DNA of 63,760 nt, the filler included, from Asterionella formosa (taxonomy: Eukaryota): NCBI GenBank assembly GCA_002256025.1. It is 14 parts of 14 records of this genome, joined end to end, with 100 filler letters (N's around TTAATTAATTAA, not from the genome) between each part and the next. Parts side by side here need not be neighbours in the genome. Positions count along the whole stretch, not along the records: positions 1 to 16,971 come from NKIB01004642.1; 13 more parts are not named here. The stretch is one strand, 5' to 3'. Of the stretch, positions 1 to 31,202 are shown one piece after another. The notes under the pieces are model-generated. The model was not told the origin of the DNA, did not search any database, and saw nothing but the letters and a program-made list of their open reading frames with translations. The position numbers and the translations under genes are program-made. The first letter of the stretch is position 1; the number at the start of each line of letters is the position of its first letter.

Positions 1-388
1 GCTGTTGGGAAGAGAATGACAGTGCCACGTATGTCTGCAAATTAGAAGTGTCATGTAAGTAGCATCAAGGTATCATGCACCAAGTAGCACAGGATTTTTC
101 GGTTTATGATACATTTGCATGTACATGTATGTATGATCAAATCCTACCATAAGTATGATAATATTATCATACCAGTACTGGTACTTTAAATGATAATATT
201 ATGCATTGTATTGGTTGTCATAATTTGTCAGAAACAATTCCAATCTACAAATAAACATCTTAGATCTACAATGCCAATTATTGGAACAGCCACCATAAGA
301 ATACTACCGGTAGTCAAATATGATCACCCTAATTAATTATTTCGATGGCCCACTATGACAAATTGGGCTACATACATAAACAACTTAA

Positions 389-1642
389 GGTTGCTGCATT
401 TGAACCTCTAGCTAGAGGTAGGGTTTAAAAAATAATATTGAGTCGGACTAATCAAACAGGTACTTTTCACGTATAAAATAGTTATATTTAACGCTCAACG
501 GAGCTTTCACCAATACACACCCTTTCCAAATGCTTACATACAGTCTTCGGACAAAGTAGGGGTGTAGGTCCACTCTATATATCTTCAGTATGTAGGATCT
601 GGTCAGAAACTGCAGAAAGGAACTTCTGTTTTTTTACTATGCTAAAAAGACTCGAAAATTCGGGAGAAATCTGTTTATTTGGCATAGTAAAAAAACGAAG
701 TTCCCCTCTGCAGTTTCTTGCCAGAAGTTATATACTGATGCTATTTGAAAGTTACCTATGTATCTAAATCGCCGTCAGACCCAGCCAACGTTTAGCTATC
801 ATCGTCCAAAAACTCGCATCGTCCCAAAACTCGACAAAATCGGCCTTTTCTACAGTCGCCAAAATATCGGAATCACAATTATTAAGTGCCGAAACGTCAT
901 CATCGGAATGGTAGCCGTGTGCCGGAATTTTTATTCCTAAAATCTCCTGTCCAAAAAATCCATTGTAAGTGCCCGCTTCCACATGTATAATATAATTGTT
1001 GAATGTGAATTACATTCCTCTGTTTGATTGGCCTGGTTTGCGAGGTCTTGCAAACCCATACCGGCCACATTGGAAAAAATGTAACATTTTCTTGGGCGTA
1101 CTTACAGTCCGGTTCTATATTCACGACAGGTACCAGTTGATGATCATCATTGAACATAAGCATACCGCTCCTTGAGTGCACTTTCAAATATTTGCTGAGC
1201 CGCCGGGTCGTATACGTGACACATAGTCGTCGATTGGAGTATAGATTGTAGTACTGGTGTATGCACATGAAGCGATGTAGAATCTAAATAGATATAAATA
1301 TGTATATATATATGTGCATTAAATGATTTGAATATGTCGAACTGATTCAATGGATAGCATATAAATCGCTAATTGGAGTATAGAGTGTCCATGCGCACAC
1401 ATGTTGATTGTATTTTTAGCGTATACCGGTATATACATACAGGAGCAACTAAGAGTGTCTAAATATATATCTAGCGATTTCGACAAGGAATCTATGTACA
1501 TATTCGCAAATTTCCACTGATTAAAATATTTCAAATGGAATCACGTCATTCAAAAATAGCTAACTAAATTCTTAATTCCAGGGAATTGTGGAAACCCTGA
1601 GCAATAATATAATTTTTGCCTAGGTTTTCAAATGCAGCAACC
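389..1642. mobile_element. Non-autonomous Kolobok-like DNA transposon (complete copy, 1254 bp)
   Basis: Perfect 16-bp TIR GGTTGCTGCATTTGAA at 389 and its reverse complement ending at 1642. TTAA flanks both sides (385-388, 1643-1646). Colinear homologue at about 20483-21490. A TTAA target with purine-purine (GG) termini fits Kolobok rather than piggyBac (CC). Confidence 0.85.
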
Positions 1643-1909
1643 TTAAGGGTATGACATCAAATATAAAATGTCATCCATCATAGAATAAAAATGATAGGAG
1701 TGAACTAAGATAGTTTCAACAACTTCCATAAACTTTTATAAACCCACATAAATTTTGGGGCAAACTAACAATATGTTGTGTGCCTGATCATTTAATTTCT
1801 GTATCAACAGCCACAATTATTGTTCGCAGCAATCAACTGTAATTTCTATGAAGAGCAAAGTAAAATGGCAATGCTATAGCAATATTAATGTTGTTGTCAT
1901 ATCCATTCA

Positions 1910-2020
1910 GGGGAATTTCTTCATGGTTAGCACACCTGTTGCGGGGGCAGGTTCGATTCCTGCCTTTTTCATGTAATCCCTAGGGTTCCGGTGGGTCCGG
2001 CTTACGAAAAGACAGGTCCC
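1910..2020 (+). repeat. tRNA-derived SINE-like short repeat, copy A (partly deleted)
   Basis: B box GGTTCGATTCC followed by CCTGCCTTTTTC...TGTAATCCC...GAAAAGACAGG. Aligns with copies at 12282-12413 (+) and 12055-12177 (-). Confidence 0.7.
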
Positions 2021-2302
2021 GTTGTACTGTATGGACGAATAAAACCAGTACTAATAGTGTTCATTTATTCTTTCGTGGACACGAGTGCGATAATTGGATA
2101 GCTTTAATAATGGAATATAAGATTTGATTGACAATTTTTTGTCATATCTATTCAAACTATTCATATTTACATTATTTGCTGAACAGTATGCTTATTTACA
2201 ACATTATTTTATTTCAAGTAAAACTTTCTATATAAATAACATGCATGTGAATAAATTTTATGTATACATGCATCCACAATCTCGTTGTTGTCATGCTGGA
2301 AA

Positions 2303-2818
2303 ATGGTGGTAACGAAAAGTGCCATTCTCCTGTTGTTCTTTTCAACCTCGGCATGTTCGGCATGGCTGTCCATACCGACAAAGCAAAAGGCGACTGTGTC
2401 CTTCATAAGATCAGAACCAAGTCGTTTGCAGCAGAACGGTAATCGAGCTCTTTTTAGTTCTATGGAATTTGAGTCTGGGGTGCAAGTAGTCTCGTTGGAA
2501 GTGCTCACGAACCATGAAGAAGAGGGATCATTGCTGGCAGTGTCGCTTATCAAATGGTTGGATGCCGAATGGATGCCTCAGGACATTCATGTGACCATGG
2601 GAGAAAGTGCGAAGAAGAGCTACATAGAAGCACGCGAAAATGGCGAATCGGACATCATGAGTGTAATGATACGAGTTGCTGACGATCTCCGCGCCAACTG
2701 GAAAGTATATGAAAAGGAGGCATTTGTCAACGAATGGGATGTCGCCAATTACTGTAGTGACTACTTCACGCAGCGGAGCGGAAATGAGGCATGTGATTGC
2801 TCCACAATGATTTTATAG
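2303..2818 (+). CDS. Conserved hypothetical plastid-targeted protein (cyanobacterial/plant-type family)
   Basis: First ATG at 2303. Hydrophobic signal peptide ending CSA-W followed by a Ser/Lys/Arg-rich transit-like stretch. Core motifs WLDAEWMPQDIH and EAFVNEWDVANYCSD recall a conserved photosynthetic-lineage hypothetical family. Confidence 0.75.
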   Translation: MVVTKSAILLLFFSTSACSAWLSIPTKQKATVSFIRSEPSRLQQNGNRALFSSMEFESGVQVVSLEVLTNHEEEGSLLAVSLIKWLDAEWMPQDIHVTMGESAKKSYIEARENGESDIMSVMIRVADDLRANWKVYEKEAFVNEWDVANYCSDYFTQRSGNEACDCSTMIL

Positions 2819-3440
2819 ATGAAACAGTCGCGAAACAATTACAGCTTGTTATCCTATTTATTCAATCTCAGCATTTACATTTTTCTCGTAGGCTTGTGCA
2901 AAGCTATGATTTGTTGTCTCAACTACCAATCGATTGAATTCAGACCGAAGAGGAAAGGAAAAGCCAAGTGAGCCTTGGTCCACGCTCTGGATCGCTGTCG
3001 CTGCCAGCTAAGATTCCAATTTTTAGCCTGTGCAGAATCAAGCAGCGAGAAATACTTGTCAGACCCTGAAATGTATACATTTAAAAATAATTACAAGTCT
3101 CGAGGTTGTTGATAAATTTCAGTAAAATTGACTTAGCTTTGCAAAATTTCCAGCACAAATAAACTCATGCAAACTTCAGATGCTTTCTTGATGGTCTTAT
3201 CTCATGTTCGATGACCAGCTAGATTATTCATGTACTTTGGGCATTGAGTGGAACATGGAAAGGTACAAATTATGAAGAGACAAACTTTAAGAAATGTTTG
3301 ATTGACAGAAGTCAGCGTATTGATTTAAAGCACAAATTCACATTCGTGCCGTCACACACAAAGGTTAATAATCTACCGCTTTACCTGATGTGCAAAAAAT
3401 GTTCCAACTGCAATCCGTCAGATTCACGTTTAAACAATCG

Positions 3441-5381
3441 CTAGACCATTTCAAACTCTGGATCTATATCATCTGCAGGTTGCTGATCTTCCCCTTCTTC
3501 GTTTGCAAAGCCTCCTTCGTCGTCAAATATTGCTGACATGGCATCGTAGTTTATCTTCCTAGAAATCTTCCGTGCACTGACAGCTGCGAATAAGGCCTCC
3601 TCCGTTGTTTGTTGCAACTCCTCTTGCAGTGTACTTGATTTTCGCTTGCGGCCTCGCTTGTTTAGGTACCGAGCGTGGCCTTCTGCTTGTGCCATTTCAT
3701 CTTGTTCTTTATGTGTCAATGCTGCTTCTTGTTGTTGGCGTTCTGCTTCCTTTCGCTCTTGTTGTTCGAGGTATTCTTTGTTGAGTGAGTTGAAAATAGC
3801 TTCTTTTTGAGCCATCTCCACGTCAGATCTAAACAACGACTCAATACCTTCCACGTGAGCCTCGGGCATGTCAGACTTCCAATGTTGAAGATTCAATTTG
3901 TCTTCATTTAACTGTGTCGATACTTGCAGTTCTTCTTCTGTCGCCTGGTTGGGTAGAACAATGACACGACCGTACTTGGACTTTGGATACATTGATGCCA
4001 GCAGAGGGTTTGGAGCCGTGAGTGCTCCGTCAGCCCGAAGTACAACCTGTTGGTCCTCGGACCGGCCTTCTTCGTCGTCTTGCTGCTCATGCACTTTCTC
4101 TAAGGCCTCGGTTTGTTCCGAATATTTTTCCACGTCAATGTGAGCTTCGTTTTTCGGTCCATTGCCGGCATGTAGTGTTTCCTGTCCTTCATCTCCAGCA
4201 GGCTCATCACTCATTCCTTCGTTTGTGCTTTGTACGGTGCCGTACGTGAGATCTTTCGCTAATTCCATGTATAATGCAGTATGCTCTTCTCGGTTTTTGG
4301 GCTTTCTTCCCCCTTTGCGCCACATTGTAGAATGCTTGCCTTCAGATGGATCGTCCAATGCACCAGATGACAATAGTTGAACGTTACCTTCCTGGATGGC
4401 CCGAGCTCTGGCCTCGCGAATGCGGTTTCTAGTGAAAACTGGAGGATCTGCCTCTGCTTCCAATTCTACAGTATTGAATTGTTCCAATGTCAATGTTGCG
4501 CTCGGTGTCTGTTCAAACTCCTTAACTCGATTCGTCACAGTCAGTCCACACACCCTCAAAATGCGACTCACATCTTGATGATGGCGCGAAAATCCGTGTG
4601 CGCGAGCAGCAATCAACAGAGCGGCAGCGCAAATACCAGCAGGTCGGCGACCTGCGACAATCCAATCTCGCTTCATCCGTCCAACCAGGCGCAGAGCGGT
4701 CAGGGCCACTGCATTGGCTTTGTGGTCCAGATCCAGATGTGCAGCAAATCTGTATACATACAGTGCAGGATCAATAATTTCCAACTTGAGACCGAGCAGT
4801 CGTCTAAATTTCAAGAAACAAGTTCCCAAGGTATACACATTCACTTGCAAGGCATCCGAAAAATCAATCAACATATGCTGACTCTTTTCTTGTCGACATG
4901 CAATATACAAACACGCCGCGACAACATGAGTCGTTCGTCGTCCTTGCACAAAGTTCTTTTCCACGGCAATCGTAAATAAGCGATGTGCAGCATCGACATA
5001 GTGTGATCCCAATCTTAGCCGCGAAGCCACATCTTGAATCCTTCTTCGGCCATTGGCCAGCGTTGTTTCTCTCGAATCTCTGGAGAAGCCGTATCGTCCT
5101 CCTCTCCCCCCTCCAGTGTATGCTTTGCTGCTAGTGGCACTGACAAACTGTCCCACCATGCTGCTTGCCCCACCAGCTCCCTCGACGAATTCTACTGACG
5201 AGACAATGGCATTTTCTTCCACCACGACGCCGCAGTCGGTGCAAATGGAAGCTCCCGAAGCGTCATGCTGTTCTATTTCCTTGGAACCGCAATTGGGGCA
5301 CAACAGTCGGGAGGACTTTGTCGGAGGTGGTGCCACAGCTTCTTCGGCTGTATTTGCAGCGAAGGAGACTGTGCGAGACAT
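3441..5381 (-). CDS. BRF1: TFIIIB subunit BRF1
   Basis: Zn ribbon CPNC...CTDCG, two TFIIB cyclin repeats (FVQGRRT, GRRPAGICAAALL) and C-terminal SRKINYD motif. First in-frame ATG at 5381; the ORF-track start at 5450 is TTG. Confidence 0.95.
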   Translation of the reverse strand: MSRTVSFAANTAEEAVAPPPTKSSRLLCPNCGSKEIEQHDASGASICTDCGVVVEENAIVSSVEFVEGAGGASSMVGQFVSATSSKAYTGGGRGGRYGFSRDSRETTLANGRRRIQDVASRLRLGSHYVDAAHRLFTIAVEKNFVQGRRTTHVVAACLYIACRQEKSQHMLIDFSDALQVNVYTLGTCFLKFRRLLGLKLEIIDPALYVYRFAAHLDLDHKANAVALTALRLVGRMKRDWIVAGRRPAGICAAALLIAARAHGFSRHHQDVSRILRVCGLTVTNRVKEFEQTPSATLTLEQFNTVELEAEADPPVFTRNRIREARARAIQEGNVQLLSSGALDDPSEGKHSTMWRKGGRKPKNREEHTALYMELAKDLTYGTVQSTNEGMSDEPAGDEGQETLHAGNGPKNEAHIDVEKYSEQTEALEKVHEQQDDEEGRSEDQQVVLRADGALTAPNPLLASMYPKSKYGRVIVLPNQATEEELQVSTQLNEDKLNLQHWKSDMPEAHVEGIESLFRSDVEMAQKEAIFNSLNKEYLEQQERKEAERQQQEAALTHKEQDEMAQAEGHARYLNKRGRKRKSSTLQEELQQTTEEALFAAVSARKISRKINYDAMSAIFDDEGGFANEEGEDQQPADDIDPEFEMV

Positions 5382-5636
5382 GCGTTTTGGAATGCTTGTA
5401 TTCGCACCGGTAGTCTTGGTGATGAGGAACGAGGTGAGGGATGTTGCCAACTAGGACTGTGCAACGCACAAGCGAACATATGATACCTTATGGTACGAGT
5501 ACTTATCACCGGTACCTGGTACCGGTACCGGTACTGTAATACATTCTTTCTGATGTGTGGAATAGAATTTACCGGTACTCACCTGCTCCAGATTTACTGG
5601 AGTATCACGGTCTTGAAAAATTACTCCAGCCATACT

Positions 5637-5760
5637 TGGGGTCGTTCTTATCATTTTCGATTTGGTATCATATTTTTTGAAAAAGTATCATGCAACGGCT
5701 ACTCGATTTAAATCGAAAAAATCCATTCTCCACAAAAATAAAAATAAAATTGTATCATCA
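5637..5760. mobile_element. Isolated PIF/Harbinger-type terminus
   Basis: GGGTCGTTCTTATCATTTT...GAAAAAGTATCATGCAACGGCTACTCGATTTAAA matches the reverse complement of the element end at about 32150-32266. Confidence 0.65.
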
Positions 5761-6217
5761 AAAAGTATCACGAAAATTCAACGGTTACGGGCTGGCTACA
5801 AACATGTGCTTTTCCTTCCAGACTACCTGTACATAATGGTACCAAACCAGTCCTCAAACCATGCAAGAAATCTACGCGAATTATGTATATGGATTACTAT
5901 AATCAATGGTATTTGCACAGGTATTTGTTGTAGTCACGTGATCATTTTCGTATTCTATTATCATTTTCGTATTCTATTGCCTAGTACTTTGTCATGAATT
6001 CCCGAATATCAGTACCAGGTACTGGTACCTGTAATTAGATACCGGGTATGTCTCTATGCACATGACTCAATCTGTTCAATTCTCGACTTTGTGGTTGTCG
6101 TTCTTTGGTGTTGTGACTGAACATTGCAACACACGGCCGCTAGAATGATTGTATGGTCCTTCTTTGATGCACACCATAACATGTATATTTTATGTAGATG
6201 TAAGGAAAAGTACTGCC

Positions 6218-6426
6218 CTGCAGGCGTATTTTCGGTTATTTTATTAGTGACAACGGAAATGATACCCGCGTGAAAACGTCAGTATCACTGATACCGTTTT
6301 TGGAGGGGGCAAAAAAAGGTATCAATTTTGTATCAATGATACAAAATTGATACCATCAAGTTACCGTTGCTGATACCGTGTTTTGATACCTACCGTCACT
6401 TTTGGCCCGCAACCCGGAAATGATAC
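6218..6426. repeat. About 200-bp GATAC/GTATC-rich dispersed repeat (probable transposon end)
   Basis: Inverted homologue at about 29545-29726; both copies end at CTGCAGGCGTATTTTCGGTT. Confidence 0.7.
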
Positions 6427-6589
6427 AGCAAATTCGGAATGATAAGAACAACCCTTGAACCACACGTATTTGATTCGTCATTTGTAAAATCAGTACCAAT
6501 GTTACCAGTAGTTTCATGTACAAGTTCAACACAAGGAGCTCCATGCATTTTGCTCTTGCTTGTTGTATGGACATACTGGTACCAGTAGT

Positions 6590-7090
6590 GCACTTTGTCC
6601 TTCTCAAATGATCAGAATGTCTGCAATGTTTCCATTTCTTGGCAGCGGAAGGTTCAAGACTTCCTTGAGCATCCATGGTGACTGCTATACCGGATTCGTA
6701 AGTTCTTCCTCTTTTCTTGTTTAATGGTTTCAAATTGTGCACTATGCTGGATTGCTTTGCTTCGTTGCAATGATTTGTTCGCTTTTTTGTTGTTAACTCC
6801 AAAAGGTTTGTTGTTGGGTTGACATTGTCATCCCCAGCATTTCATATACATCTGACATGTATTTATCAGCGCCTTGTGTCCTCTGCTGCTGTCCTGCAAC
6901 TGATGCTACTCAATAGAGCAGGCTTTGGGAGCCAGCGAAAATTTTGTTTTTTGGACAACCCCTTCCAACAGCATTGTTCATCACTTCATTCATTTGTGTA
7001 TCAATTGGGTGATGTAATGCTTTGAGTTTCTCACCTTCCATCCTTTTGCCAACATTTTCAATTAACCAATCGAACATTTCCTTGTTGTTA
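6590..7090 (-). pseudogene. C-terminal remnant of the Kolobok-like DDE transposase
   Basis: Hand translation FDWLIENVGKRMEGEKLKALHHPIDTQMNEVMNNAVGRGCPKNKIFAGSQSLLY*VASVAGQQ aligns almost residue for residue with FYDWLMFNVAAKVEGEKLLSLYHPFDTQINEAMNNAVSRRCPNNKVFAGSGSLQYRVASVAGQQ in the 36-kb ORF. Contains a stop and frameshifts. Confidence 0.85.
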
Positions 7091-7105
7091 ATAGATGACC
7101 AACAT

Positions 7106-7557
7106 TCATTTGCTACTATGTTTAATCATTTTAGACACTGGTTGGAAACCAGTGTACCCTTCTTTGTGATCCGTATTCTTGAGAAGCGAACAAACCCCCT
7201 TCAGGCAACAATCTGGAAGTTCCATGCGGATGCCTTTCCCCAAGGAGCCACAGAATGTCTTGACAAGAAACTTGTAGTATACAAGGTTTCTTCCTTGACA
7301 AAGCATGACTACATTTTCTTCAAGTCGAAGCTGAACCAAATCCGTCTCCATGTATTGCTCAACTAATTCCTCCAGCTCGTCCCATTGACATTGTTGACAC
7401 TCTTAGCATGCAAAGTCACAAATTCACAGAAGATTCGGTTCCCGCAGCCTTCAACTTCTGACTCAGTAATGGCATGATCAATACAAGTAGGGCACGGAAC
7501 ATGGTTTTATGGAAGAGGATGAGAGCCATTCACTACAGGCAATGCAACAGAACTCAT
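7106..7557 (-). pseudogene. KolX/P2X7-ballast-like Cys-rich ORF (two stops, one frameshift)
   Basis: Hand translation ...CPTCIDHAITESEVEGCGNRIFCEF/CDFAC*ECQQCQWDELEELVEQYM...GRNLVYYKF...GSLGKGIRMELPDCC...YTGFQP. The N-terminal half is homologous to the ORF at 53092. Confidence 0.75.
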
Positions 7558-7640
7558 TGTTGATTGTTGCGTTGCTCGACATTATTTTGTTGCTCAAACA
7601 AGAACCAATATCATATACATAGATTCTCGAGGTATTTATA

Positions 7641-8045
7641 TGTCAAGAATATAAGCCCAAGTCACAAGGATTGTGGACTCAATTGTAATTGAATGAGTCG
7701 AATATTGCATTGCCACATCAATCATCTGTCTAACTAGATCAAAGATTGAAGATTTATATGGAAATGTTAAGTGGAAACTCGAAGAGAGTCTTAGAACGAC
7801 TTTGCGGGAAGCGAAGATGCATGGAAAGGAAACCTTTAGTTTAGCTTATAATTTAATTTGAGTTAAGATTATCAACCAAGGAAACAGAGTGTTAATTGAC
7901 AGGAAGGTCAATTAGTCTATCTAGCAGGAAGGCTAGAAGCAGAGACAAGAGAGAAAGTAAGTGGCACTAGGTAGTACTACAAGCATGTACGAGTCTACAT
8001 GAAGAGAGACCCAGCCCACGGGAAGGAGTACAGACCATTTCAACA
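7641..8045. mobile_element. Solo LTR (405 bp) inserted in the Kolobok-like element
   Basis: Starts TGTC and ends AACA (TG...CA). Flanked by the direct repeat TTTATA at 7635-7640 and 8046-8051. Removing it restores the expected terminus-to-ATG spacing of the host element. Confidence 0.75.
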
Positions 8046-8051
8046 TTTATA

Positions 8052-8305
8052 CTAGCTCAAGTCTATACATGCATTCTGGCGGTGAGTAAAATTATAACTA
8101 CATTGAGCAATGTAGATATAACATAAACATCTTCATTCTTTTTGAAATGGAACTCTGTCAATGTGGAGCCATTTTCTACTCAGTTTAAATATTCAAACAG
8201 GTACTTGCATCATGGGAATACACACAAACAAATTCTGATTTCCACGTCAATTTTACAACCCTAGCGATTTCTTCTTCAAACCAGGGTTAAGCGGGGGCCG
8301 CAACT
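8052..8305. mobile_element. Degenerate terminal segment of a Kolobok-like element
   Basis: ACATTGAGCAATGTAGA and a final AACCCTAGC...GCAAC segment match the reverse complement of 52762-52965 and the right end of 389-1642. Confidence 0.55.
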
Positions 8306-9775
8306 TCAATCAATAACGGGAGTCGTGATCATAGAAAATAAAGTCGTTGAATTTCCTGCCGGATCTTCCCCTTCAGTTCGGCTTCGAGCAGGCCAACATA
8401 TTCAAATTGAATCTTCCATGATGTGAACGGCTAAATGTTTCACAATCTAGATGTTGCCAGCGTATTTACCGCCACATTCGGGAGGTACTGTACAATGTAC
8501 AGCAACATTAGAAATTAATTAGGGACTATGACATGCTTCGAAAGGGAGTGCATACTTTCCAAATCACTGTCGTATTTACCTGGTATCAGGTACTGGTACC
8601 AGGTACTCTGGATTCCTGTACGTGGCCTACAAGAGACTTACTGGTACGGCGACAACCATGAACAGTTTATCTGGTACCGGGGACAGTTCAGTAAAAACGT
8701 CCAAGTTGAATTAGGTTTCCCTAATAGGTATGTAATATTGGTGAAGCATTGATTACAGACACTGTCCTAATTTATATTTCTTGTCTGATGCTTGAAAAGA
8801 ACGAAAGCGACAATTACATGTACTATTTTGAAGACGGTCAAGAATGCCAAAGTTGTTGCAAAGCGAACCCTAAAATGACCGATTTTGTATCCTAACCGTT
8901 ACATTTAGCCACCACAGCAGCATGATGTATGGGTANNNNNNNNNNNNNNNNNNNNNNNNNNNNNNNNNNNNNNNNNNNNNNNNNNNNNNNNNNNNNNNNN
9001 NNNNNNNNNNNNNNNNNNNNNNNNNNNNNNNNNNNNNNNNNNNNNNNNNNNNNNNNNNNNNNNNNNNNNNNNNNNNNNNNNNNNNNNNNNNNNNNNNNNN
9101 NNNNNNNNNNNNNNNNNNNNNNNNNNNNNNNNNNNNNNNNNNNNNNNNNNNNNNNNNNNNNNNNNNNNNNNNNNNNNNNNNNNNNNNNNNNNNNNNNNNN
9201 NNNNNNNNNNNNNNNNNNNNNNNNNNNNNNNNNNNNNNNNNNNNNNNNNNNNNNNNNNNNNNNNNNNNNNNNNNNNNNNNNNNNNNNNNNNNNNNNNNNN
9301 NNNNNNNNNNNNNNNNNNNNNNNNNNNNNNNNNNNNNNNNCTAGTAAACTCTCGCACGATCAACTAACAAACACTGAACACTGTTTGTACTTTCATGTGC
9401 AATCCTATTCCTCCTTCGTGTGCAGGCATTCCTGCCCATGGTCATTCGTTTAAACAATTTCAACGTGACATCGACTTCACATGTATGTACGATGTTCATC
9501 GTCGTTCCAAATGCCTAATACCGGTACTCAAACCGAATTAGATTGGCCGAAATATCACATCGAATAGGATGACTCCTGCTGGCATTCGAGCCAGCGATTT
9601 CTATATCGAACGTCCGAACTTGTATGTGGCATTTGAATAATGCTCCGTAAAAGTGCCTGTAGTTGAGTGCCTCAGAACAATTCTCTATTATATACCGTTG
9701 TAGGTTATGTTAGCGCCATGAGCGAAGAAGACATTCACACGAGCAAGAACGTAGAATCCTACGGCAGAAATAGCT

Positions 9776-11281
9776 ATGGACGAAATTGGAAATGCTCAGC
9801 CATGTCACCAAACCACGTTCGTCTTTATAATTAAGGTGCATTTTCTCGTACACTTGCATGCTATTTTCGACAATGTTAACATCGGTACCTCGTCCGATTT
9901 TCAGCCTAGACATGATGAACTCTCCTCCTTTCTCCGATGGTGGCCCTGATCGCATCGATAATGACCGAATTGGCAGCCACCAAGCTTCTGATGTGCGCAT
10001 GGAAGGTGGTGGAAGGCCTTCTCCAGGATCAATACGCCCTAGCAAGGAAGCAGGCGCGGCTTCCGCCCTTACTAGCCTTGTCAAGAAGCCCACCGTCGAA
10101 GACGTCGGTGAAGACTTCGATCTGCCTCAACGATTCACGAAGAGCGGTCGAAAAAAGGCAATTCCCTTTCCTCTCAAGGTATGTGGTGACTGATCCGTTT
10201 TGCGCTGCATTCGTCGTATTTGACATTCAAATGTAGCTAACAAAGCTTACATCGTTCGTGTGAAAATGCAAACAAACATCTCACAGTTGATGAAGGTGCT
10301 CTCACAAAAAGAATACACTGACATCATTACGTGGCTTCCTGACGGAAAGTCCTTCACCATCATTCGCCCCAAATCCTTCGTCACTGAGATTTTGCCTGGC
10401 TTTTTCAAAAGCTCGAAATACTCTAGTTTCACAAGAAAACTCCATCGTTGGGGATTCCAGCGTCATTTGAGAGGCGAAGATGCGGGTGCATTCTTCCATA
10501 AACACTTTATACGTGGACGTCTTGATCTCGTGGATAAGATGACTTGCCACAAGGATGACGGTTCCTCAATGGACATGCAACGTGCTTGTGTTCCCTCTGT
10601 TAATCATCGGGAAACAGGCGGAGGGAGTAATTTTCCCCGAGACCCAATTGTCAGAGCAGTTGGCACTCCAGCAAACGTCATGTCGCATGACTCCCAGCTG
10701 CAACTTCAGCAGCAGCTCCAGCAACTTCAGCAGATGCAGCAGCAGTTGCAGAGCTTGCAGCAACAACAGCAGCAGAACATTGTAATGCACCAACAACAAG
10801 AGCAGCTCGAACTGATGCGAAGTCAGGTGCAACATCCCATGCAAGCTGGTCAGCGACTGGACAGCAGGGATGTGAATTCTGTCGACCGACTCAATGCCGC
10901 CATAGAACTTGAAGTCAGTCGACGTCTTACTGGGCGTATGCATGGGGGCAACGATCGATTCATTCCCCAATCAATGCCTGTGTTCAACAACTCAGATCGC
11001 CTTGCATTATCACGGCAAGCTCTCGCCATGAACCTTGTGATGCCGTCCCAAGCTCAGCAGTTCAATGTTGGACCTCAATTCAACACCCAATCATTTCAGG
11101 GACTTCAAAATCTGTTAGGTAAGAGACAAGGTTGTTAAATTGAAGTGGCGCTTTTTAATATCTCACATGATGAACGAATGTTCCTTTATGCTCAGGTGGC
11201 CAAGATACTATGAATATTAGACACGGAATTAGTAGGGGAGATGTAATGATGGACAGTGAGGGGCCACTACAGAGGTTCTAA
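9776..11281 (+). CDS. Heat shock factor (HSF) transcription factor with polyQ; predicted exons 9776-9816, 9905-10178, 10287-11118, 11196-11281
   Basis: HSF DNA-binding domain PFPLK|LMKVLS...IITWLPDGKSF...KYSSFTRKLHRWGF is joined by the in-frame GT-AG intron 10179-10286. The first and last exons are inferred from phase-compatible GT-AG sites and are less certain. Confidence 0.88.
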
Positions 11282-12054
11282 ATGAATGCATGTCTGATGA
11301 AGTTGAGAGAGGGGTGATTAACTTCAATTCAGATATATGAAATTGTCAATGTTAGTAATTGTTGTTGCTGACTTGAGGGAGTACTGGTAATCTCAAAAGG
11401 TATTTTGCCAGTAAGTATACATGCAATATACAAAGTTTAATTTGTACAGTACAAAAATTATGTGGTTTATTTTGGCAGTTATCATTAGTTACAAGTCTAA
11501 AATTCTTCTACTTATGTCTATTGACTAACAAATGGTCAACAGATAAGGGGGTCCAGAGCAAACATTCTCATTGGGGTGCAATTCTACAAAAAATGCGCCA
11601 AAAAAATAAAAACGAAGTCAGGTTCACCTAATTGTAGACCATTTAGAACATATTTTATGTACACCATTATGTTCGGAATAATTTTTATAAAGGAGGGGCT
11701 ACTAGATGGAGAATTATTGGAGGTTGCGCTTCATGTGAAGCAGTGACCTAAAGGTTGGGTGCAACTATACCGGAAGAGAGGGAGTACATAGGATATATGC
11801 TAAGGGTACCCGAGGTAGCCTTGTTTGTAGCAGCTAGTGTATAATTATTTAGCTTTTTAGGGCAGGTCTTAACATATGAAATAATTAGGTAAATTTTATA
11901 GTACGATATTGTTAAAGAACTCAACAATTGTGGAGGTTGTGAAGTCGCACTTTGCCCCTGGTACCAGCACCAGAAATGTATTTTCGAAACTATACTTCGA
12001 ACAAAGTGCTAGATATATCAATATTCATTTGGAAAGGCAAAGCCAGAGGGCCTT

Positions 12055-12177
12055 AGACCTGCTTGTTGTCTGCCTCACCACCTGGAACCCAAGGGACTAC
12101 AAAACAAAGCAGGTGGAGAATGCGGGAATCAAACCCCTCACCTCGGAAGGTGAGCTAACCCAACTAAGCAGTTCCCC
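12055..12177 (-). repeat. tRNA-derived SINE-like short repeat, copy C
   Basis: Minus strand reads GGGGAACTGCTTAGTTGGGTTAGC...GGTTTGATTCCC...CCTGCTTTGTTTTGTAGTCCCTTGGGTTCC...AACAAGCAGG. Confidence 0.7.
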
Positions 12178-12281
12178 AAGAAAGTGTATATTTTTTCTCC
12201 TTTTTCCACCTATTATTAGCCTGCTGGACCATATGTTCTACCATGAGAAAATACCTTCCTTGCACAAAAGTGTTTCTAAAT

Positions 12282-12413
12282 GGGGGGAATGGCGTAGTGG
12301 TTAGCACACCCTTCTGCGGTAGCGGGTTCGATTCCTGCGTTCTCCCCCTGTCTTTTTCATGTAGTCCCTAGTAGCAGGGTTCTGGGGGGTTCCGCTGACG
12401 AAAGGACAGGTCC
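12282..12413 (+). repeat. tRNA-derived SINE-like short repeat, copy B (best preserved)
   Basis: A box TGGCGTAGTGG, B box GGTTCGATTCC, acceptor-like stem GGGGGGA/TCTCCCC, shortened anticodon arm, then a 3' stem-loop. Confidence 0.75.
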
Positions 12414-12428
12414 TACAATATCTGTTCA

Positions 12429-12523
<95 letters not shown>

Positions 12524-13329
12524 CGGGGGCATCCGCCCACCATGACCTTCTCCTGCCTTAAGTATTGAACTCTCTGATAAGTGCCACACACCTGAGCGAT
12601 TTCACCATGATCAATTTCTTATGGATGTATTTGCCGAGGTTGGGGTGAGTGACTTCAAAATATTCCACATCAACTGGCTGTTCTAGAATATTCCTGCAGG
12701 TCCACGCACACTATAGCGTATATTGCTAATGCGGCTGATGTCAAATGCATTTGTCCGGAAATATTATCATTTCAATGACTCAAAGATAGTAATTCGCGCC
12801 GCCTCCAGTTGCCTAATCAGTCTGAACAAACTTGGCAACAAAAATCAGATTGGAAAAGGGCGTTGATGTCATATGCACGTCTTGCACTCTCCTCTTCGAC
12901 AGAAACATTGTCTCTCCTCCGTCAAAGACTAGGAAGACGGACAACACCACCAGTCCAAGTAAGGAAAATATATTTTGTTCTTCACACAAAGCAACTGTGG
13001 CGAAGAGTTTGGAACACATGATGGTTTCTTCACAACTCAATCTCAACCTCCCGACTGTCCACCATAGTCGAATCAAGGGGAGTGGCCACCACCCATCGCC
13101 TTCCTAAGTCAGCGCTCCCATGTGATGTTACAAAAGATTGGCAGGTAGTAACATACAGGGTAATAGAATGCTCCTTCCAGTCCGCACCAGGCACAGGAGT
13201 CGGCAACAACATACATGGAGCACATAGCTTGCCTACTAGCCTCTTATCAAGGGGCGTCTAATGTATGACCTAAAACTGATTTCATCGTCGGCTCCTTCCT
13301 CAAGACTGCAAAGACAACTTCTACTAGGT

Positions 13330-14130
13330 CTTCCCTGTTATGTGGGCACGGAGGGATCATATAAAAATGGAAAGGCATCGCACGACGCCTGGTCCTTGCG
13401 TCTGCGAATGACCAAATCCAACGTTCCTTGGGAAACAGTCTCCTGTGCTGGACCTGTCAATGGCGAGCCGGAAGGGAACAGCTCTACCAGCCAGAGCGGA
13501 ATTGTTTGCAATTGTCTCAGCCCTTAAATTCTTTCAAGAGTTTCTTAGATATCATTGCATAAACTCCTCCAGTCAGCAGGTATACATCTGGAGCGACAGT
13601 GAGTCTTTTATACACCGGATTCAGAAGCTCCAAACACAACTATGCATGGTGGGTAGGCTTCCACCAAATGCAAATATTGTGTCATAAATATCTCAAATTA
13701 TCAATACAGTCTCCATCACCACCAAATTACTAGCATGGGTTCAATCCCACCAAGATGCACCAAAAGGCACCAAACAGTCGCAACTTATCTCCGAGTGCCA
13801 AACTAATTATAAGAGCAGATTGCCTGGCAGAAATGTATCTAGCATCACATCTGTGCGGCAAGACAGGTCATCCAATCCCGAATTCATGCCATTTTCCGTC
13901 CAGCAAAGCCATTTTACTTATCAGAAAGACTAGAATTGACAGTGACTCGTCCCACCGCGCGCATGCAGCTCTCGTCTCATATCTTAGATATTTTACAGAA
14001 AAACACAAGATTACCTTTGGATATAATGAGAAAAATTGGAAAACCTTTTCATGTGAGTTCAAGAAGAAATCAAACTCAGAACAAACGATGGTTGCAAAGT
14101 TTATTCATGGATGGCTTCGTCTGCAAATAA
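13330..14130 (+). pseudogene. Degenerate non-LTR retrotransposon RNase H region
   Basis: Frameshifted motifs YVGTEGS...GPVNGEP, RAELFAIVSAL, IWSDSES, WVQSHQD, IRADCLA and KFIHGWL are typical of RNase H domains in LINE-type elements. Confidence 0.7.
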
Positions 14131-16639
14131 AAAGCCATCATATTCCTATGATGCATCATAGGATTATGATCATATGATCGTGATTTTTCGTTATATCATC
14201 TAATAATTTTGATAAATGCCCTTGTAATTTAAATAGTAACCCTTTTGACTATGGAAATTTAATTATTAAATGTATTGTTTCTTTTAGGTTCCTTTATTAA
14301 AATTTCTTGGTAGGATAATGTACCAGTTAAAGTAATGTGGTTTGGCTCATCATCCTCTCCAGTCCTCACTCTGATTCTTGCCACAACAACAAAGCAGTCA
14401 TGTCGAGAGGAACAAGTATTTGTGCTAAAATCTTCATTTGTCTTTCAAGTCATAATATGTCTTCGATGAATCATCATCTGCATTGTACAGTATGTTTGTA
14501 TGCAATCCGTTAAGAGCTTGAAAAGAAATCCAATGAAAACGAAATGGCTCAGCCATCACACAAGACGAATATTTCCGGCCGGTCTGTCACCAGAGCATCA
14601 ATCAGTGTTACAACCTCAATCACAGCTAAATAGCATCCATTATAGAACAGCACAATCTACTTCTCAGTAACATTGTCTCTCTAACAAGAACGTAATACAT
14701 CTAGAATTGAAACACAGTATAGCAGGCAATATTCACAAAGAAATAGTAACACAGTGATTCTGGTTTCGAAATTTTCATGTCTCATCAGAGCTCTTTTTTC
14801 ATCGTACTAGTTCCTTACCTTTGACGACAGGAGCGTATTCTTTGATGTATCTGGAATGTTTCAATGGATGGCACCAGTTGGATTTAGACACAAACCTCGA
14901 CAAAAGCACTACTTTGTAGATGTTCATAAAAAGCCAGACACTTTGGCCTATCGACCACCACTCAGTCTATACTGCAAAAATGCAAGAAGCACAAGTTGAA
15001 TGCCCATTTATGGATTCAAGTTTCAGTAGTGCAACAATGTAAAATATTAGAAAACGGAAGTCACATTTCATCTAATTACGGTTTTCAGTAGCTGTACTAG
15101 TATTGATTGAGAGGAAGCAATGGTAGAATGCCAAACGGGCGGGGGCAAACACAGAGAATCCTACTAATTTTTCTCCCCAATGATCCCAGACCCTTCTTGA
15201 ATGTCACTTGCTACAGAAAATGGAGAACAGCCGCCATGATCTGTTGATTGTTGCTTGCTGTATGTTGCCACTGACCAAAACCTCCAGAAAGCTCAATGAA
15301 TTGCTTGTTTCTTGACTTGAATGCAAAAGGGATCGAAACCAGTGAAAAATTCAAAAAGGAACTAAAAATGCTCTGCAAACACAGGACAATTGTGAAAGGT
15401 AAATGAAGGTTCTTGGGGGGAGAAGTAAAGGGATAATTGCTTCTGCTGGTCTTGCGGGAACAAGAATAGATTGACCCAAACAACAATGTTGACAAATAGG
15501 TACCTATGGGAAAAGGAAGCAATGCTTTCGGCATCATCAATCTATACACAAGCCTGCGCCACCTAACATCAATATAGCTACCTCGACTTCATCAATGAAG
15601 AAGTCAATGGGTGGAGCATGTGAGGAAAATCGGGGTTGAGGTATTCTTGACGCCAACGTGGGCTTGCTTGGCTGAACTTGCAGATGAAGGCATTGAGTAA
15701 CCTGGGCCTGTGAAGCCAAAGGAGAAAGAAAAATCTATGAAAAGGGTGTTTAGGAGGGGGGAGCAAAAGTTATAATAGCTGAACGCATTCGAAACTCGTA
15801 CAGATAATAAATGGTGGCATGCCATGGCTGCTCTTGGCTGACAGTTGCCAAGTCAAGTACAAACACAACAAGCAAGGGTGCACAAAAGACAGTCCAATTT
15901 TAATCGACTGGCTGATACATAGTTTTGAGACTCACCATTCTGCAATGGGGTGGACTTTGATTGTTCGAAGCACATTCAATTCGAATGCTGTCCAGTGAAA
16001 CAACAGCCAATGAAAACAATTGTGGTGGCGAAAAAGCGCAGAACAGATCAAGAGATTTCATAGGAATTAAAATAACAGGGCATAGATGATGCACTGCTCC
16101 TTGTGTAGACTAGCTATATTTGATCATTTCCTTATTTCATACTATACAGGTGCAGCATGGATGACTCCTCCCGCCCTTTCATTAGATATGCAGCCATGTT
16201 GCAATAATTCTACAGGACCTATAGGATTGGTAGTCTGGCTGGTGGTCATCATTTCCGCATTGTATATACCAGTAGGAGTCATGTAGTTTGCATGCATGCT
16301 GCGATAATTCTTACAAGACATAAAAAAAATTTGGTTGCTTGGGGTTATCACTTCTGTACTGTATGCAGGGGGAGAGGGAAGGAGTTGCATGCACGAGCAA
16401 CTTCTCCGGTATAACAAACTATGATCTTTAATTAATAAATTTTGATTTGTTTATCATATACCTTTGATCATAACATATTGATCATTTGATAAACGGTATC
16501 GTTGATGAGAAAATGAAAGATCAAAATTTTATTTTCAGGAATCAGGATAAATTGATCTTTAAAAATATGATCAAATGATCCTAAACAAATGAGCATATTC
16601 AGTTTTCCGCCGCACTATTGTGGCATTTTCATGATAGAA

Positions 16640-16970
16640 ATAATTCCCAGCAAGTATACAGTACTACCGGTAGGCCAAATGAATTTTGGTCAATATGTCT
16701 ATATACATAAATGTATGATTTCGACCATTTGAAAAATTGGTGATGACTCCCGACTATTAAGGGGCTTAATTAAATCAGCCACTGACTTGTAGGTAAAAGA
16801 ATTGACACAAAACAAATTGAAAAAATTCAATAGGGCATGGAAAACTATGAACTCATCATGCATTGTACTTTATATTTGAATTATGTATAATCAAAATTGA
16901 TATTAGTATACACACCAGGATATGCCATATAGTAATGAGCTTGTTGAAAACTATGCAAATGTTCAACTTT
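16640..16970. repeat. Dispersed repeat with an inverted homologue at about 50200-50480
   Basis: AGGGGCTTAATTA...CACTGACTTGTAGG matches the reverse complement of CCTACAAGTCAGTG...TAATTAAGCCCCT. Confidence 0.55.
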
Positions 16971-18259
16971 ANNNNNNNNNNNNNNNNNNNNNNNNNNNNN
17001 NNNNNNNNNNNNNNNTTAATTAATTAANNNNNNNNNNNNNNNNNNNNNNNNNNNNNNNNNNNNNNNNNNNNTGTTGAAAGAGAGGAATGAATGTAAGTTT
17101 GGTTGACAAAACTGATGTTTTCAATTATATGAGCTTAATTCTAGTTGGCAAAATGAGGAAGGTGAGGAAGTGCCAGAAGCAACTAATGAAGTGCTGGCAT
17201 CATGGAATGAGTACTGAATCTACAGAATCCTAAGGGAAAGGTAGAGAAGTGCCAGTAGCAAGATCAGAGGTGCTGACAGTAAGCTGTGTATGAATGTACA
17301 GCCTGGTACCATAGACCTGCCTACTTGGTACCAGCAGCATTGTGCTGGTGCTGTTATACCAGTACTACTATGCATAAAACCTGGTAGCATGACTAAATTC
17401 CCGCCGGAAGTATCATCATGGTACCTGGTGCCTGGTACTAGGTATCACAGAACCATTTTCTGGTGTCCGGTACTAGGTACTACCGGGTACCAGGTACAAA
17501 ACCTGGTACTGCTAAGCATCACTAAATTCCTGCCAGCAGCCGGTGTGCAAACCAGTAGTACCTGGTAGTAAAGTGCTGCTCCAGCAGTATGGTGCTGCCG
17601 TCATTGACAGGGCAGAACCGATTTAGCGCTACTGTTGGTAATATACCAGCATTGCTCCTAGTAGCTACTACTAGTATACAAATGACCAGTATACTGACTC
17701 TAGGACGATAGTACTGGGTACAACCGTCACTTTATGTAGTTTTCATTCCTTTTCCTTCCAGCAATCATTTTTACAAATATTGCCACCAGTACGTTAGTAA
17801 GGAATTTTCTAGGACATGATCAACCCCCTCCAATGTTGATCAGTGGTGAACCTCCCATGATGGTTCCACTTAAATAAAGTTCTTATATTTATAAGGTACC
17901 TTCACTTGCTAGAGCACTAACCCAGCTGACTCCTTCTGTCAGTCATGGCAGTGACACCCTGCTGATGTCACCCTGAACCCGAAAACGCGGACATTACCTG
18001 ACCTTGCAGTACTAGATGACAATGTTGGTACCAACATATCATTTTATTATTGATACATTTGCCAGTCCTTGCCACCATTTCCTTCCCGATCAAGCTTCTT
18101 CCAAGACTAGAAATACAGAAAATATCGCACAAAACTTACGTAGACAGTCGTTCTCAATACCCCAGTGGTTATATAATTTGTTAATTCAACAATTTGTGGG
18201 GGATGCCCGACAGGCATCTCAAGGTCCAAAAACATGGATTATGGTCGGAAGGCGCCGAT

Positions 18260-18850
18260 TTAGTTGGGAATGAGGGATACTCCAAGCTTCTCGTGGACCA
18301 TGAGAGCGAGGATTCCCATTTGGGCGGCACGTCCTTGGTTAAGCTCAATGGCACGCTTGGAAAGTTGAGTCTCAGCGTCGAATGAATCCCAGCCAAAATC
18401 AAGAGCTCCGTTACGGAAGTCACCAACGAATTCTCCTCCGGTAATGTCCTTCATGACAGCGAGCTCAAGGAATCCAATGAAGGCAACAATCTGGGCAATA
18501 CCGGCTCCAGAGATGGCATCAAGGGCACCGAAGCCATTGGGGATGGACGCGAAGGTGGTGCCAGAGTAGTCGATGTCACCAGGGAGACGGATACCGTTCT
18601 CGGCAACCAAGTATCCAACAACAGCAAGCATTGAAATACGTCCGTGCTTGATCTCGACGTATCGGAGACGGTCGAACTTGTCCTGGTCGCCGTCGGCAAC
18701 CAAGCCAAGAGGATCCCAGAATCCGAGAGGCGCTTGGGCACCAAGCTCATCCTCGAAGGCCATGTTCATAGCCGTGGTCTTGAGAGTCTGCTTGGCAGGG
18801 GCAAAGGCGGCAGCAGAGGCGAGAAGGGATGCGACGATGACAGACTTCAT
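18260..18850 (-). CDS. Lhcf: Fucoxanthin-chlorophyll a/c binding protein (Lhcf family)
   Basis: Signal peptide with AAA-FAP; motifs ELGAQAPLGFWDPLG, RLRYVEIKHGRISML and RAIELNQGRAAQMG. Intronless with strong codon bias. Confidence 0.97.
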   Translation of the reverse strand: MKSVIVASLLASAAAFAPAKQTLKTTAMNMAFEDELGAQAPLGFWDPLGLVADGDQDKFDRLRYVEIKHGRISMLAVVGYLVAENGIRLPGDIDYSGTTFASIPNGFGALDAISGAGIAQIVAFIGFLELAVMKDITGGEFVGDFRNGALDFGWDSFDAETQLSKRAIELNQGRAAQMGILALMVHEKLGVSLIPN

Positions 18851-19265
18851 TTTGTTGTGTATTTGTTGTTGTTGACTAAACTGGGAATTGTGAGAATTAA
18901 GAGTTTTATTTTATTGATCCCAGTCTATTTTCGTATCCATTTCCTTTTGCTCATGATGATAGCTCCATAATACATAATCCATAAAGCCCTGTACCATTGA
19001 ACTCTATTTCCACATGATGTAGAATTCATCGTGAAAACATTGAGTATTAGCTGGTAGATCAGAGTAAAGAACCCTGCTTTTCAAAGGTACAGTCAAGTAC
19101 GGTTGACGTCTAGACAAGGATCTAAATCCATGCGAACAACTCTGCCACTTAAACGAGATTGTCAGTTGGTGCATGATTTGCTTGTCGTCTTGACGCAGCC
19201 GCTGTTCAACTATGTACCGGTAGGTTCCATTGTGGTGTACCAGGTATGCGATATAGTACCAGGTA

Positions 19266-20371
19266 CCTGCAAGTTGCGGTAATTTTGCTGAACTAAGGAT
19301 TTAGGTGTCTTTATCCCATATCAAAATTTTTTTTTAAGCAAAATGACCGCATCTGGTTGCTGTACCTGCAAGCTACGGTCATTTTCCTGAAATGGACAAC
19401 GTGTTACCGGACAGCGACATATTTTATCATAAATAGTACTAAAGGACATCTTCAATTCATAGCACGATTCAGCGAAATAAATAGTGGAATTCTTCTAATT
19501 GCAAAAACGAGAATACAAAGCACATGACTATGACTTTCAGGAAAACATTATGACTTTCAGGAAATTCCTATGAATTTCAGGAAATGACTATGACTTTCAG
19601 GAAACTTAAGGAAATGTCAGGAAACTTCAGGAAACGTAAGGAAACTTAAGGAGATGGCAGGAAACGTAAGGAAACTTCAGGAATTTCCTGGAATTTCCTA
19701 AAGTCTCCAAAATTAGTTTTTTCTGGCCAAAGTGAAAAACCCCACATCCTTCGTTCTGGATTTACAGTACCGTACAAGATTCCTTATCGGTTATAGTTAG
19801 GAGCATTTGAAAGACCGGTAGTGGTGTTACTAACTATTACATAGGTATGACGGTATACCCGTACCGGGGTAGGTATGTAATCTTGACTTTTTCCAGCAAT
19901 AAGAAGGCCCATGCGAAGGAACTCACGCCGGGTGTAAGCATTATTTTGAGGATCACAAAATAGAATTGTACTGGACCACTGTATCAGGGTTTCAAATTTT
20001 GATTCCTGAAAGTCATAATGTTTTCCTGAAAGTCATAGTCATATGCTTTGTATTCTCGTTTTTGCAATTAGAAGAATTCCACTATTTATTTCGCTGAATC
20101 GTGCTATGAATTGAAGATGTCCTTTAGTACTATTTATGACAAAATATGTCGCTGTCCGGTAACACGTTATCCGTTTCAGGAAAATGACCGCAGCTTGCAG
20201 GTACAGCAACCAGATGCGGTCATTGTGCTTAAATAAACAGTTTCAGGAAAATGATCGCAGCTCGCAGGTAGCTACAGCAACCAGATGCGGTCATTGTGCT
20301 TAAATAAACAATTTGACATGGGATAAAGACAGCTAAATCCTTAGTTCAGCAAAATTACCGCAACTTGCCGG
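19266..20371. mobile_element. Foldback/MITE-like element with about 300-bp TIRs and internal minisatellite
   Basis: 19266-19563 is the reverse complement of 20003-20371; the right arm carries an extra duplication of about 60 bp. Tandem TGACTTTCAGGAAA and AGGAAACTTA units at about 19525-19700. The terminus CCTGCAAGTTGCGGTAATTTTGCT recurs at about 27244 and 38190-38222. Confidence 0.9.
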
Positions 20372-20482
20372 TGCCAGTAGGTCAATGGATGGTTTGTCAA
20401 TCATGAGGTGCAGCGACGACATGACGTCAGCAAGGAGTTATTTTGAAATGTTATTGTTCGCATCGTCAAAAATTAATAGAAC

Positions 20483-21490: not shown

Positions 21491-21517
21491 TTAAAATACT
21501 TTCAATAATATGGTAAT

Positions 21518-21621
21518 AGGAAAATGATATTTTGTCCCCCAAACCCTAACACTTATCTTCAGATGCTACCATGGAAGAGTCTGGGGTTACTAGGGTTAGG
21601 GGGACAAAATATCTTTTTCCT
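21518..21621. mobile_element. About 100-bp MITE-like inverted repeat
   Basis: AGGAAAATGATATTTTGTCCCCC...GGGGACAAAATATCTTTTTCCT, flanked by AAT/AAT (or TA/TA if the termini are GG/CC). Confidence 0.7.
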
Positions 21622-24600: not shown

Positions 24601-24709
24601 GCGCTGATGGGCAAAGCAGCAACCGCTCCCAGCGCTGACACAAATCCATCATATCGAAATATAATATAACAGTTCACATTCTACAAACCCAGTTCCACAA
24701 AACCAGGAA

Positions 24710-31185: not shown

Positions 31186-31202
31186 ACTACAACTCTTACA
31201 GT

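Follow-up and report, generated by a model that had tools for sequence, protein, structure and literature searches.

In a window of 63,760 nucleotides from Asterionella formosa (Eukaryota; NCBI GenBank assembly GCA_002256025.1; the window is the whole stretch of DNA that was analysed, filler included), positions 6590-8309 carry the remains of a transposable element. A degenerate terminus, a small cysteine-rich (Cys-rich) open reading frame (ORF) and the C-terminus of a DDE transposase all lie here on the minus strand, in one uninterrupted stretch. In this paper we describe the locus, its intact relatives in metagenome contigs and its other copies in the window, and argue that it is probably what remains, in a eukaryotic alga, of a Kolobok cut-and-paste DNA transposon some 3.9 kb long, a copy now rearranged and dead. 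We show the anatomy of the element, its intact relatives, its deletion derivatives, its TTAA flanks, the motifs of its transposase and purifying selection on the small ORF, and propose from these that the transposase is active, that derivatives move in trans and that the small protein is a zinc-binding accessory factor.

Two kinds of additional sequence were used. Contigs from four DNA runs, labelled as algae, freshwater or lake-water metagenomes, were placed on positions 1-8900 of the window, and two metagenome contigs, L001 and L002, which bear the gene for the transposase P0001 (791 amino acids, aa), are the basis of our description of the parent element. P0001 was found with the 382-aa transposase ORF of 35970-37118, to which it is 80% identical, and represents a cluster of 159 sequences. 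A third contig, L003 (2.1 kb, coverage 0.88), was excluded from every count. Its transposase fragment, 900 bp long and broken by a stop codon, is embedded in unrelated AT-rich coding-like sequence, and the contig is probably an assembly chimera.

The locus at 6590-8309

Separate scaffolds have been strung together to make up the window; their joins are marked by pairs of 44-N runs around a six-frame stop linker (N44-TTAATTAATTAA-N44), and physical linkage is valid only inside a single piece (Table 1). A separate gap of 405 N lies at 8936-9340, inside piece 1-16971; no N occurs in 1-8935, and the linkage of the features within 6590-8309 is therefore real. The initial annotation of this DNA had proposed that 6590-8305 links three components which are otherwise scattered across the window. 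The linkage on the minus strand is confirmed, and the scattered features were found at the sites named, but these sites are spread over at least four scaffolds.

The terminus at 8305 reads TTGA followed by AGTTGCGGC, where good copies read TTAA followed by GGTTGCTGC. It is very degenerate and was identified through its position, that is, by collinearity with L001, and not by sequence alone. This collinearity is recovered once a 405-bp insert at 7641-8045 is removed; by our own rough estimate, not computed by a tool, about 0.08 such insert candidates are expected by chance in the interval. The summed contig depth over the insert, relative to unique bins, is about 1000-fold in run X1 and several hundred-fold in runs X7 and X8, and the insert looks like a very abundant solo long terminal repeat (LTR) or something of that kind. 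The window has no further copy of it and none of the phage records matched it, the phage collection being unsuited to the question. After subtraction of the insert and of one TTTATA copy, the distance from terminus to ATG is 312 bp, the corresponding distances being 313 bp for L001 and 330 bp for the copy at 52762; the last figure had been given correctly by the initial annotation, whose 337 bp for the present locus is close to, but not the same as, the measured value.

The Cys-rich ORF has its ATG at 7582 and its stop at 7106 and is spread over three frames, so that at least two frameshifts must be present. Its product is 81% identical to protein P0008 over 98 aa and is homologous to that of the ORF at 53092-53379 (tblastx identities of 68% in a 25-aa and 32.5% in a 40-aa segment). 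On the transposase side, tblastx pairs 6751-7083(-) with 36117-36443(-) in segments of 66 aa (65% identity) and 34 aa (56%), and blastn does so in one of 278 nt (69%), the peptides TQMNEVMNNAV and TQINEAMNNAV standing at the two loci as first reported, and by eye the resemblance to P0001 continues to 6590. A single stretch, 6779-7276, joins L002 1446-1583 to L002 3470-3755 (blastn), and the small ORF abuts the transposase tail because about 1.9 kb, equivalent to L002 positions ~1590-3465, has been deleted. Below 6690 no 3' non-coding region, hairpin or terminus is recognisable; when L002 4188-4800 was aligned to 5000-6650(-) of the window, the score of 21 fell below the highest shuffled score, 27. 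This copy is dead, incapable of moving or of making protein.

Parent element

In L002 the small ORF (1167-1625, 152 aa) is followed, after a gap of 186 bp and on the same strand, by the transposase gene (1812-4187, 791 aa). The 5' end of the element is seen in L001, where positions 244-270 read TTAA followed by GGTTCCTGCATTTGAACCCCTAG, and the 3' end in L002, where the reverse complement of 4767-4793 is TTAA and the identical 23 bases. L001 contains both genes as well as the 5' terminus, and the contig ends before the 3' end of the element. The parent element is thus about 3.9 kb long, with perfect 23-bp terminal inverted repeats (TIRs) that start with GG and abut TTAA, and it runs from one TIR through the Cys-rich ORF, the transposase and the hairpin to the other TIR, the two genes sharing a strand. 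The Cys-rich ORF begins about 313 bp from the 5' end; at the 3' end, about 600 bp of non-coding DNA contain the hairpin, which lies between the transposase and the terminus (L002 4454-4577, a stem of about 34 bp in a fold of -68.5 kcal/mol). The initial annotation had arrived at the same order, with the two genes in tandem, by reconstruction. It is observed directly in L002, and for its 5' part in L001, that is, in both of the two full-length loci recovered.

These contigs also bear on whether, at 7084-7139, where the Cys-rich ORF adjoins the transposase tail, nesting or deletion has merely by chance brought together two transposons that are unrelated. It is the single such junction in the window, and the region is full of nested repeats. 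In L002, however, the order of the two genes, their shared strand and the termini around them are all the same as here, L001 has the same 5' terminus with both genes, and the non-autonomous copies described below join the same 5' and 3' ends, so that a chance meeting is extremely improbable and we treat the two genes as parts of one element.

The transposase ORF of L002 ends just past a GTAAGT, and about 72 bp on (4176-4247) there is a pyrimidine run with CAG, downstream of which 58 further in-frame codons rich in D, E and S extend over 4248-4421. A relative, P0004, has a similar acidic tail within a single ORF. Judged from these signals, the gene probably has a short GT-AG intron of 72 bp and a C-terminus longer than the 791 aa called. 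The region of the intron and acidic tail is kept in the non-autonomous copies (window 817-959 and 20899-21041).

In the mechanism that we propose, the transposase would bind the terminal repeats, excise the element and integrate it at TTAA, which would be duplicated in the process, while the small protein may act as an accessory factor and short derivatives, which keep only some 230 bp from the 5' end and 760 bp from the 3' end, would be mobilised in trans. In the copy at 6590-8309, about 1.9 kb that once separated the small gene's end from the final third of the transposase are gone, as is the 3' end of the element, and a 405-bp LTR-like insertion, frameshifts and stops have been acquired. 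Intact copies with perfect 23-bp repeats and two open genes suggest that in nature the family could still be active.

Copies in the window

A map of copies was made by blastn of L002 against the window (Table 1). It shows seven loci of one family within about 60 kb, in a sample of 64 kb, and thereby names a high-copy repeat family for annotation of the genome. A 20-nt terminus, TTAAGGTTGCTGCATTTGAA, occurs five times with at most three mismatches (at 385, 1646, 21494, 27401 and 52758), where shuffled sequences lead one to expect 0.01 occurrences. In all four runs the summed contig depth across 298-2079 exceeds the depth of unique bins at 2377-5346 by a factor of tens to hundreds, a ratio which is not a copy number.

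Two of the loci, 384-1647 and 20490-21494, match only L002 859-1086, the 5' end, and 4032-4794, the 3' end (blastn), and the elements at 385-1646 and 20490-21494 are therefore internal-deletion derivatives of the parent, 1.0-1.26 kb in length. The suggestion that elements of about 1.2 kb are non-autonomous derivatives is in this way upheld. The copy at 52758-53381 stops where its 1054-bp contig stops, which is no biological boundary.

Table 1. Pieces of the window and features of the transposon family (positions along the window; (-) and (+) give the strand)
Feature	Positions	Strand	Remarks
Window pieces	1-16971, 17072-34024, 34125-51073, then contigs of ~1054 bp from 51174 on		
Joins	16972-17071, 34025-34124, then every ~1154 bp across 51074-62708		
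Degenerate 5' terminus	8297-8309	-	collinear with L001 244-260, after 8263-8093 aligned to L001 291-458
5' subterminal non-coding region	8093-8263	-	local alignment to L001 291-458, score 42
Solo-LTR-like secondary insertion, 405 bp	7641-8045		TGT...ACA ends; 6-bp repeat TTTATA at 7635-7640 and 8046-8051
Small Cys-rich ORF, pseudogene, 'MSS...HVPCPTC' subfamily	7106-7582	-	tblastx to 53161-53379; blastn to L002 1446-1583
DDE transposase, C-terminal third	6590-7125	-	in-frame stops, frameshifts; directly after the small ORF
Complete non-autonomous derivative	385-1646	-	TTAA, TIR, ~240 bp of 5' end, 234 bp of unmatched filler, ~780 bp of 3' end with hairpin, TIR, TTAA
Second non-autonomous derivative	20490-21494	-	5'-type end intact with TTAA; other end degenerate
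5' terminus fragment	27401-27451	+	TTAA and ~47 bp, then unrelated repeat; blastn part 27408-27451
5' subterminal fragment	32266-32363	+	L002 895-1034, 88-90% identity; abuts another repeat
Transposase pseudogene	36080-37866	-	both ends truncated, 404-bp internal deletion, frameshifts; without small ORF, without termini
5' end and start of small ORF	52758-53381	+	TTAA, terminus, 330-bp leader, first 96 codons; blastn part 52766-53381

Target site

The complete derivative at 385-1646 is flanked on both sides by TTAA, with no longer repeat beyond (the flanks read ...caac and gggt...). TTAA adjoins seven of the ten termini that were tabulated, the remaining three being degenerate, and the termini of L001, L002 and the window copies read GGTT...AACC, which fits 5'-RR...YY-3' and agrees with the TTAA/GG ends first assigned to the family. 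In run X1, position 379 is linked to position 1651 by a contig of depth 1021, and the 13 letters in between include one TTAA, after which the right flank begins. We read this contig as an empty site of 385-1646, with a single TTAA, as the initial annotation had predicted for such sites; it is one imperfect contig, from one of the four runs.

Transposase and superfamily

The transposase ORF of the window matches Pfam family PF20700, 'Mutator-like transposase', with an E value of 2e-21. In 7/7 relatives PF20700 is the only Pfam family found at E<=0.1, a threshold at which the MULE, hAT, P and piggyBac families gave no match in any of the seven. Eleven aligned relatives have in common D308, C347, C350, H363, C365, D403, D405, D455, H458, H517, H522, C530 and E582 as invariant residues, and C525 is kept in at least 90% of them; the catalytic residues were assigned by this invariance and not from a reference alignment. 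A DxxH motif (D455-x2-H458) sits after the second D and before the E, a predicted zinc finger (H517/H522/C525/C530) between DxxH and the E, and a putative CCHC finger (C347, C350, H363, C365) after the first D. All 11 profile matches carry PF20700, and three of them (P0099, P0100 and P0102) add Exu_RNase_H_like and RNase_T DEDDh exonuclease domains. The alignment of P0001 with P0099 extends for 572 aa (E 4e-41), all motifs being common to both, and from their domain architecture we infer that P0099, P0100 and P0102 are KolobokD transposases.

In the portions of PMC9587614 that we draw on throughout, Kolobok elements are described as having TTAA duplications and 5'-RR...YY-3' ends. The C/DxxH motif is common to Kolobok, hAT, P, MuDR and Dada, whereas a zinc finger between C/DxxH and E is present in almost all Kolobok and absent from MuDR, P and hAT; certain lineages of Kolobok are distinguished by a CCHC finger that follows the first D, and KolobokD carries an exuperantia-like DEDDh exonuclease (PMC9587614, in part). 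Since DxxH with a zinc finger before the E, the CCHC finger, relatives fused to Exu-like domains, TTAA and GG/CC ends are all published Kolobok traits, we conclude with good confidence that PF20700 covers Kolobok transposases and that the present family is Kolobok. The motifs of the transposase thus agree with the superfamily to which the element had first been assigned. That a Pfam family named 'Mutator-like' probably covers Kolobok transposases matters for any classification of transposons that is based on Pfam; a search of the literature found no mention of PF20700 or of IPR049012.

The name of the Pfam family also suggests that the element is a Mutator-like transposon (MULE/Phantom) and that its TTAA flanks reflect mere target preference, and the C/DxxH signature, being common to MuDR and Kolobok in the same portions of PMC9587614, is compatible with either superfamily. 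We consider a Mutator-like element quite unlikely. The duplication on both sides of 385-1646 is the 4-bp TTAA and no longer, where 8-11 bp, a length named in the initial annotation, is typical of MuDR, MULE and Phantom elements; the TIRs are short, at 23 bp; no other Pfam transposase family, and no MULE domain, was matched at E<=0.1; the transposase has an additional zinc finger between DxxH and the E, which is absent from MuDR as far as these portions of PMC9587614 describe it; and it has relatives with the architecture of KolobokD.

Several points weigh against the assignment to Kolobok and against parts of the anatomy given above. Pfam's name for the transposase family is 'Mutator-like', and the superfamily was called from published descriptions of motifs and from architecture, not from a tree with reference Kolobok, MuDR, P and hAT transposases. 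A THAP domain, which is usual in the transposases of Xenopus Kolobok elements (PMC6004289, in part), is absent from the Pfam matches of 7 proteins at E<=0.1 and of 5 proteins at E<=0.001. The 5' end of L002 is mutated and reads GACA/GAAT where TTAA/GGTT is expected, and 385-1646 is the sole element in the window with both ends intact. Its empty-site contig has T where the window has ACAAC to the left of TTAA, shows four extra letters after GGGT on the right, and comes from one run of four, X1, which may be the source of the window itself; the right flank of 385-1646 is, moreover, repetitive.

Other searches with the transposase were negative. A profile search of the Protein Data Bank (PDB) returned only a ribosomal protein at E 0.32, and a scan of viral contigs with the transposase profile, for a relative beside a gene for KolX, the accessory protein of some Kolobok elements, gave 99 pattern matches of which none was confirmed.

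Small cysteine-rich protein

A comparison of the small ORF in L002 with the copy at 53 kb over 94 codons gave 15.0 synonymous and 14.0 non-synonymous changes, a ratio of non-synonymous to synonymous rates (dN/dS) of 0.18. The family falls into two subfamilies that are 55-58% identical and keep nearly all cysteines. Because of the low dN/dS and because the cysteines are nearly invariant across the two subfamilies, the small ORF is a real gene under purifying selection. The protein is probably zinc-binding and may serve as an accessory factor.

The initial annotation had called the ORF P2X7-ballast-like and similar to KolX. In PMC9587614, in the portions cited here, the similarity of KolX to the P2X7 ballast is called 'clear', and Kol0, the group concerned, is reported from animals; among the literature matches for KolX that were listed, this is the only paper concerned with transposons. 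The ballast domain is the ZCD, which the authors of PMC7016195 did not find outside Metazoa. We regard it as possible, though somewhat doubtful, that the small ORF is a true and very divergent homologue of KolX and of the P2X7 ballast (ZCD), in a Kol0-like Kolobok element outside animals. Like KolX (PMC9587614, in part), it is a separate small gene within a Kolobok-type element, and the end of its protein partly fits the third ZCD motif, (L/I/V)PSC(C/S)x3IRx2(F/Y)Px5Y(S/T)G (PMC7016195). In the C-terminal consensus of the small protein, LPDCCLKGVxSLLKNKDxxExYTGF, the L, P, CC, R and final Y/F-T-G agree with this motif, with V for I. Two cysteine clusters upstream, CPTC and then FCECCDFxCPECQC, fit ZCD motifs 1 and 2 in order only.

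Searches for such a homologue point the other way. Pfam PF20478 was matched at E<=10 by none of 68 proteins scanned (67 family members and one doubtful match), and no P2X7 chain was found at E<=10 among PDB chains, by phmmer or by a profile search, so that the ballast-like character proposed at first is not supported. A phmmer search of 1.84 billion proteins returned 24 matches, all of them close relatives; of 77 matches that a profile gave among 5.8 billion proteins, none carried a Pfam domain; and the best score in the ESM Atlas was 0.86, with no named family. The fit to the third motif requires S to be replaced by D, F/Y by L and P by K, as well as an insertion of two residues, and the small-protein family has about 12 conserved cysteines where the ZCD has 7-8. 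The resemblance is not 'clear', unlike that of KolX to P2X7 in the cited portions of PMC9587614, where the CCHC finger, too, is listed for lineages other than Kol0. AlphaFold models built from 19 and 48 sequences reached predicted local distance difference test (pLDDT) scores of 47.2 and 48.6, too poor for comparison of folds; with such a low-confidence model, Foldseek found nothing in the PDB at E<=0.001, and one row at E 9.3, a TssA domain of the type VI secretion system (T6SS), is meaningless.

If the small protein were nevertheless KolX, the domain that gave rise to the P2X7 tail would be present in a transposon of a photosynthetic protist; although it has been called an animal invention, it would occur beyond Metazoa and also beyond the lineage of Kol0. 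In that case TTAA-targeting transposons would either have had KolX in common as an accessory protein since long ago or have exchanged it among themselves. If it is not KolX, the small ORF would add to the accessory proteins of Kolobok another type, as yet undescribed, under purifying selection. Whether the P2X7 ballast domain predates animals is a question which the 152-aa protein of L002 makes testable.

Relation to known elements

The link between KolX and the ballast, lineages of Kolobok accessory proteins and diatom Kolobok elements have already been published (PMC9587614, in part). With the Kol0 group, whose type is Kolobok-1_XT in that paper, the present element has in common the TTAA duplication, RR...YY ends (GG...CC here), two genes, for a DDE transposase and a small Cys-rich accessory protein, and DxxH with a zinc finger before the E. 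It differs in that its small protein has no detectable match to the P2X7 ballast, its transposase has no THAP domain and carries after the first D the CCHC finger listed for other lineages, and its host is an alga, where Kol0 is reported from animals in PMC9587614. KolobokD is alike in the homology over 572 aa to P0099 and in its catalytic and zinc-finger motifs, CCHC included, but there is no exonuclease here and the accessory gene is upstream and unrelated.

Kolobok elements of diatoms include a Repbase entry for Fragilariopsis cylindrus, which is cited in PMC9587614, and repeats of Cyclotella cryptica that were classed as Kolobok by RepeatModeler (PMC7466962). These families are reported from the same superfamily as the present element and from the group of algae that the initial annotation had proposed for it. 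The resemblance of the small protein to the P2X7 ballast or ZCD (nanor, PTHR36981; PMC7016195) lies in small size, richness in cysteine and an end like LPxCC...Y-T-G-F, and the difference in the lack of a statistical match, in the greater number of cysteines and in their other spacing.

The ends of piggyBac elements are CCC...GGG. The present element is like piggyBac in its duplication of a TTAA target and differs from it in ends of the form GG...CC and in a transposase with no piggyBac match in Pfam in 7/7 proteins.

Neighbouring features

The apparent 'tandem' repeats with a spacing of 2308 in the window arise because it contains two near-identical short contigs with linkers. These contigs, 51174-52227 and 53482-54535, have a mutual identity of 97-99% and are alleles or repeat copies, with no tandem duplication. 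On the same piece as the decayed copy, 404 bases at 5604-6007, with ends AT..AT, are skipped by contigs in X1, X7 and X8, so that this interval is another element, whose presence varies from one sequenced population to another. A repeat family rich in GATAC/GTATC occurs at 5630-5745, 6209-6425 (including a 37-bp palindrome at 6318-6354), 29545-29735 and 32163-32266, the last copy abutting and truncating the Kolobok fragment at 32266.

Other repeats and ORFs were observed elsewhere. Positions 19262-20375 look like a foldback-type element, an inverted repeat with 241-nt arms that are 96% complementary and outer arms of 106 nt, enclosing arrays of the 10-bp unit AGGAAACTTA. The 1054-bp contig 54636-55689(-), which encodes gag zinc knuckles, LLDSGATVH as a motif of an aspartic protease, and the beginning of an integrase, looks like a fragment of a Ty1/copia-type retrotransposon. 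Two ORFs are host-like: 10224-11138(+), with, by eye, a DNA-binding motif of the heat-shock-factor type and a long Q-rich tail, and 40737-42386(+), which is BRAP2-like (zf-UBP, RING; Atlas score 0.97) and is assigned by the Atlas to Eukaryota and to no narrower group. At 61873-62664 an ORF consists of 12- and 72-nt repeats, which encode units rich in proline, threonine and lysine.

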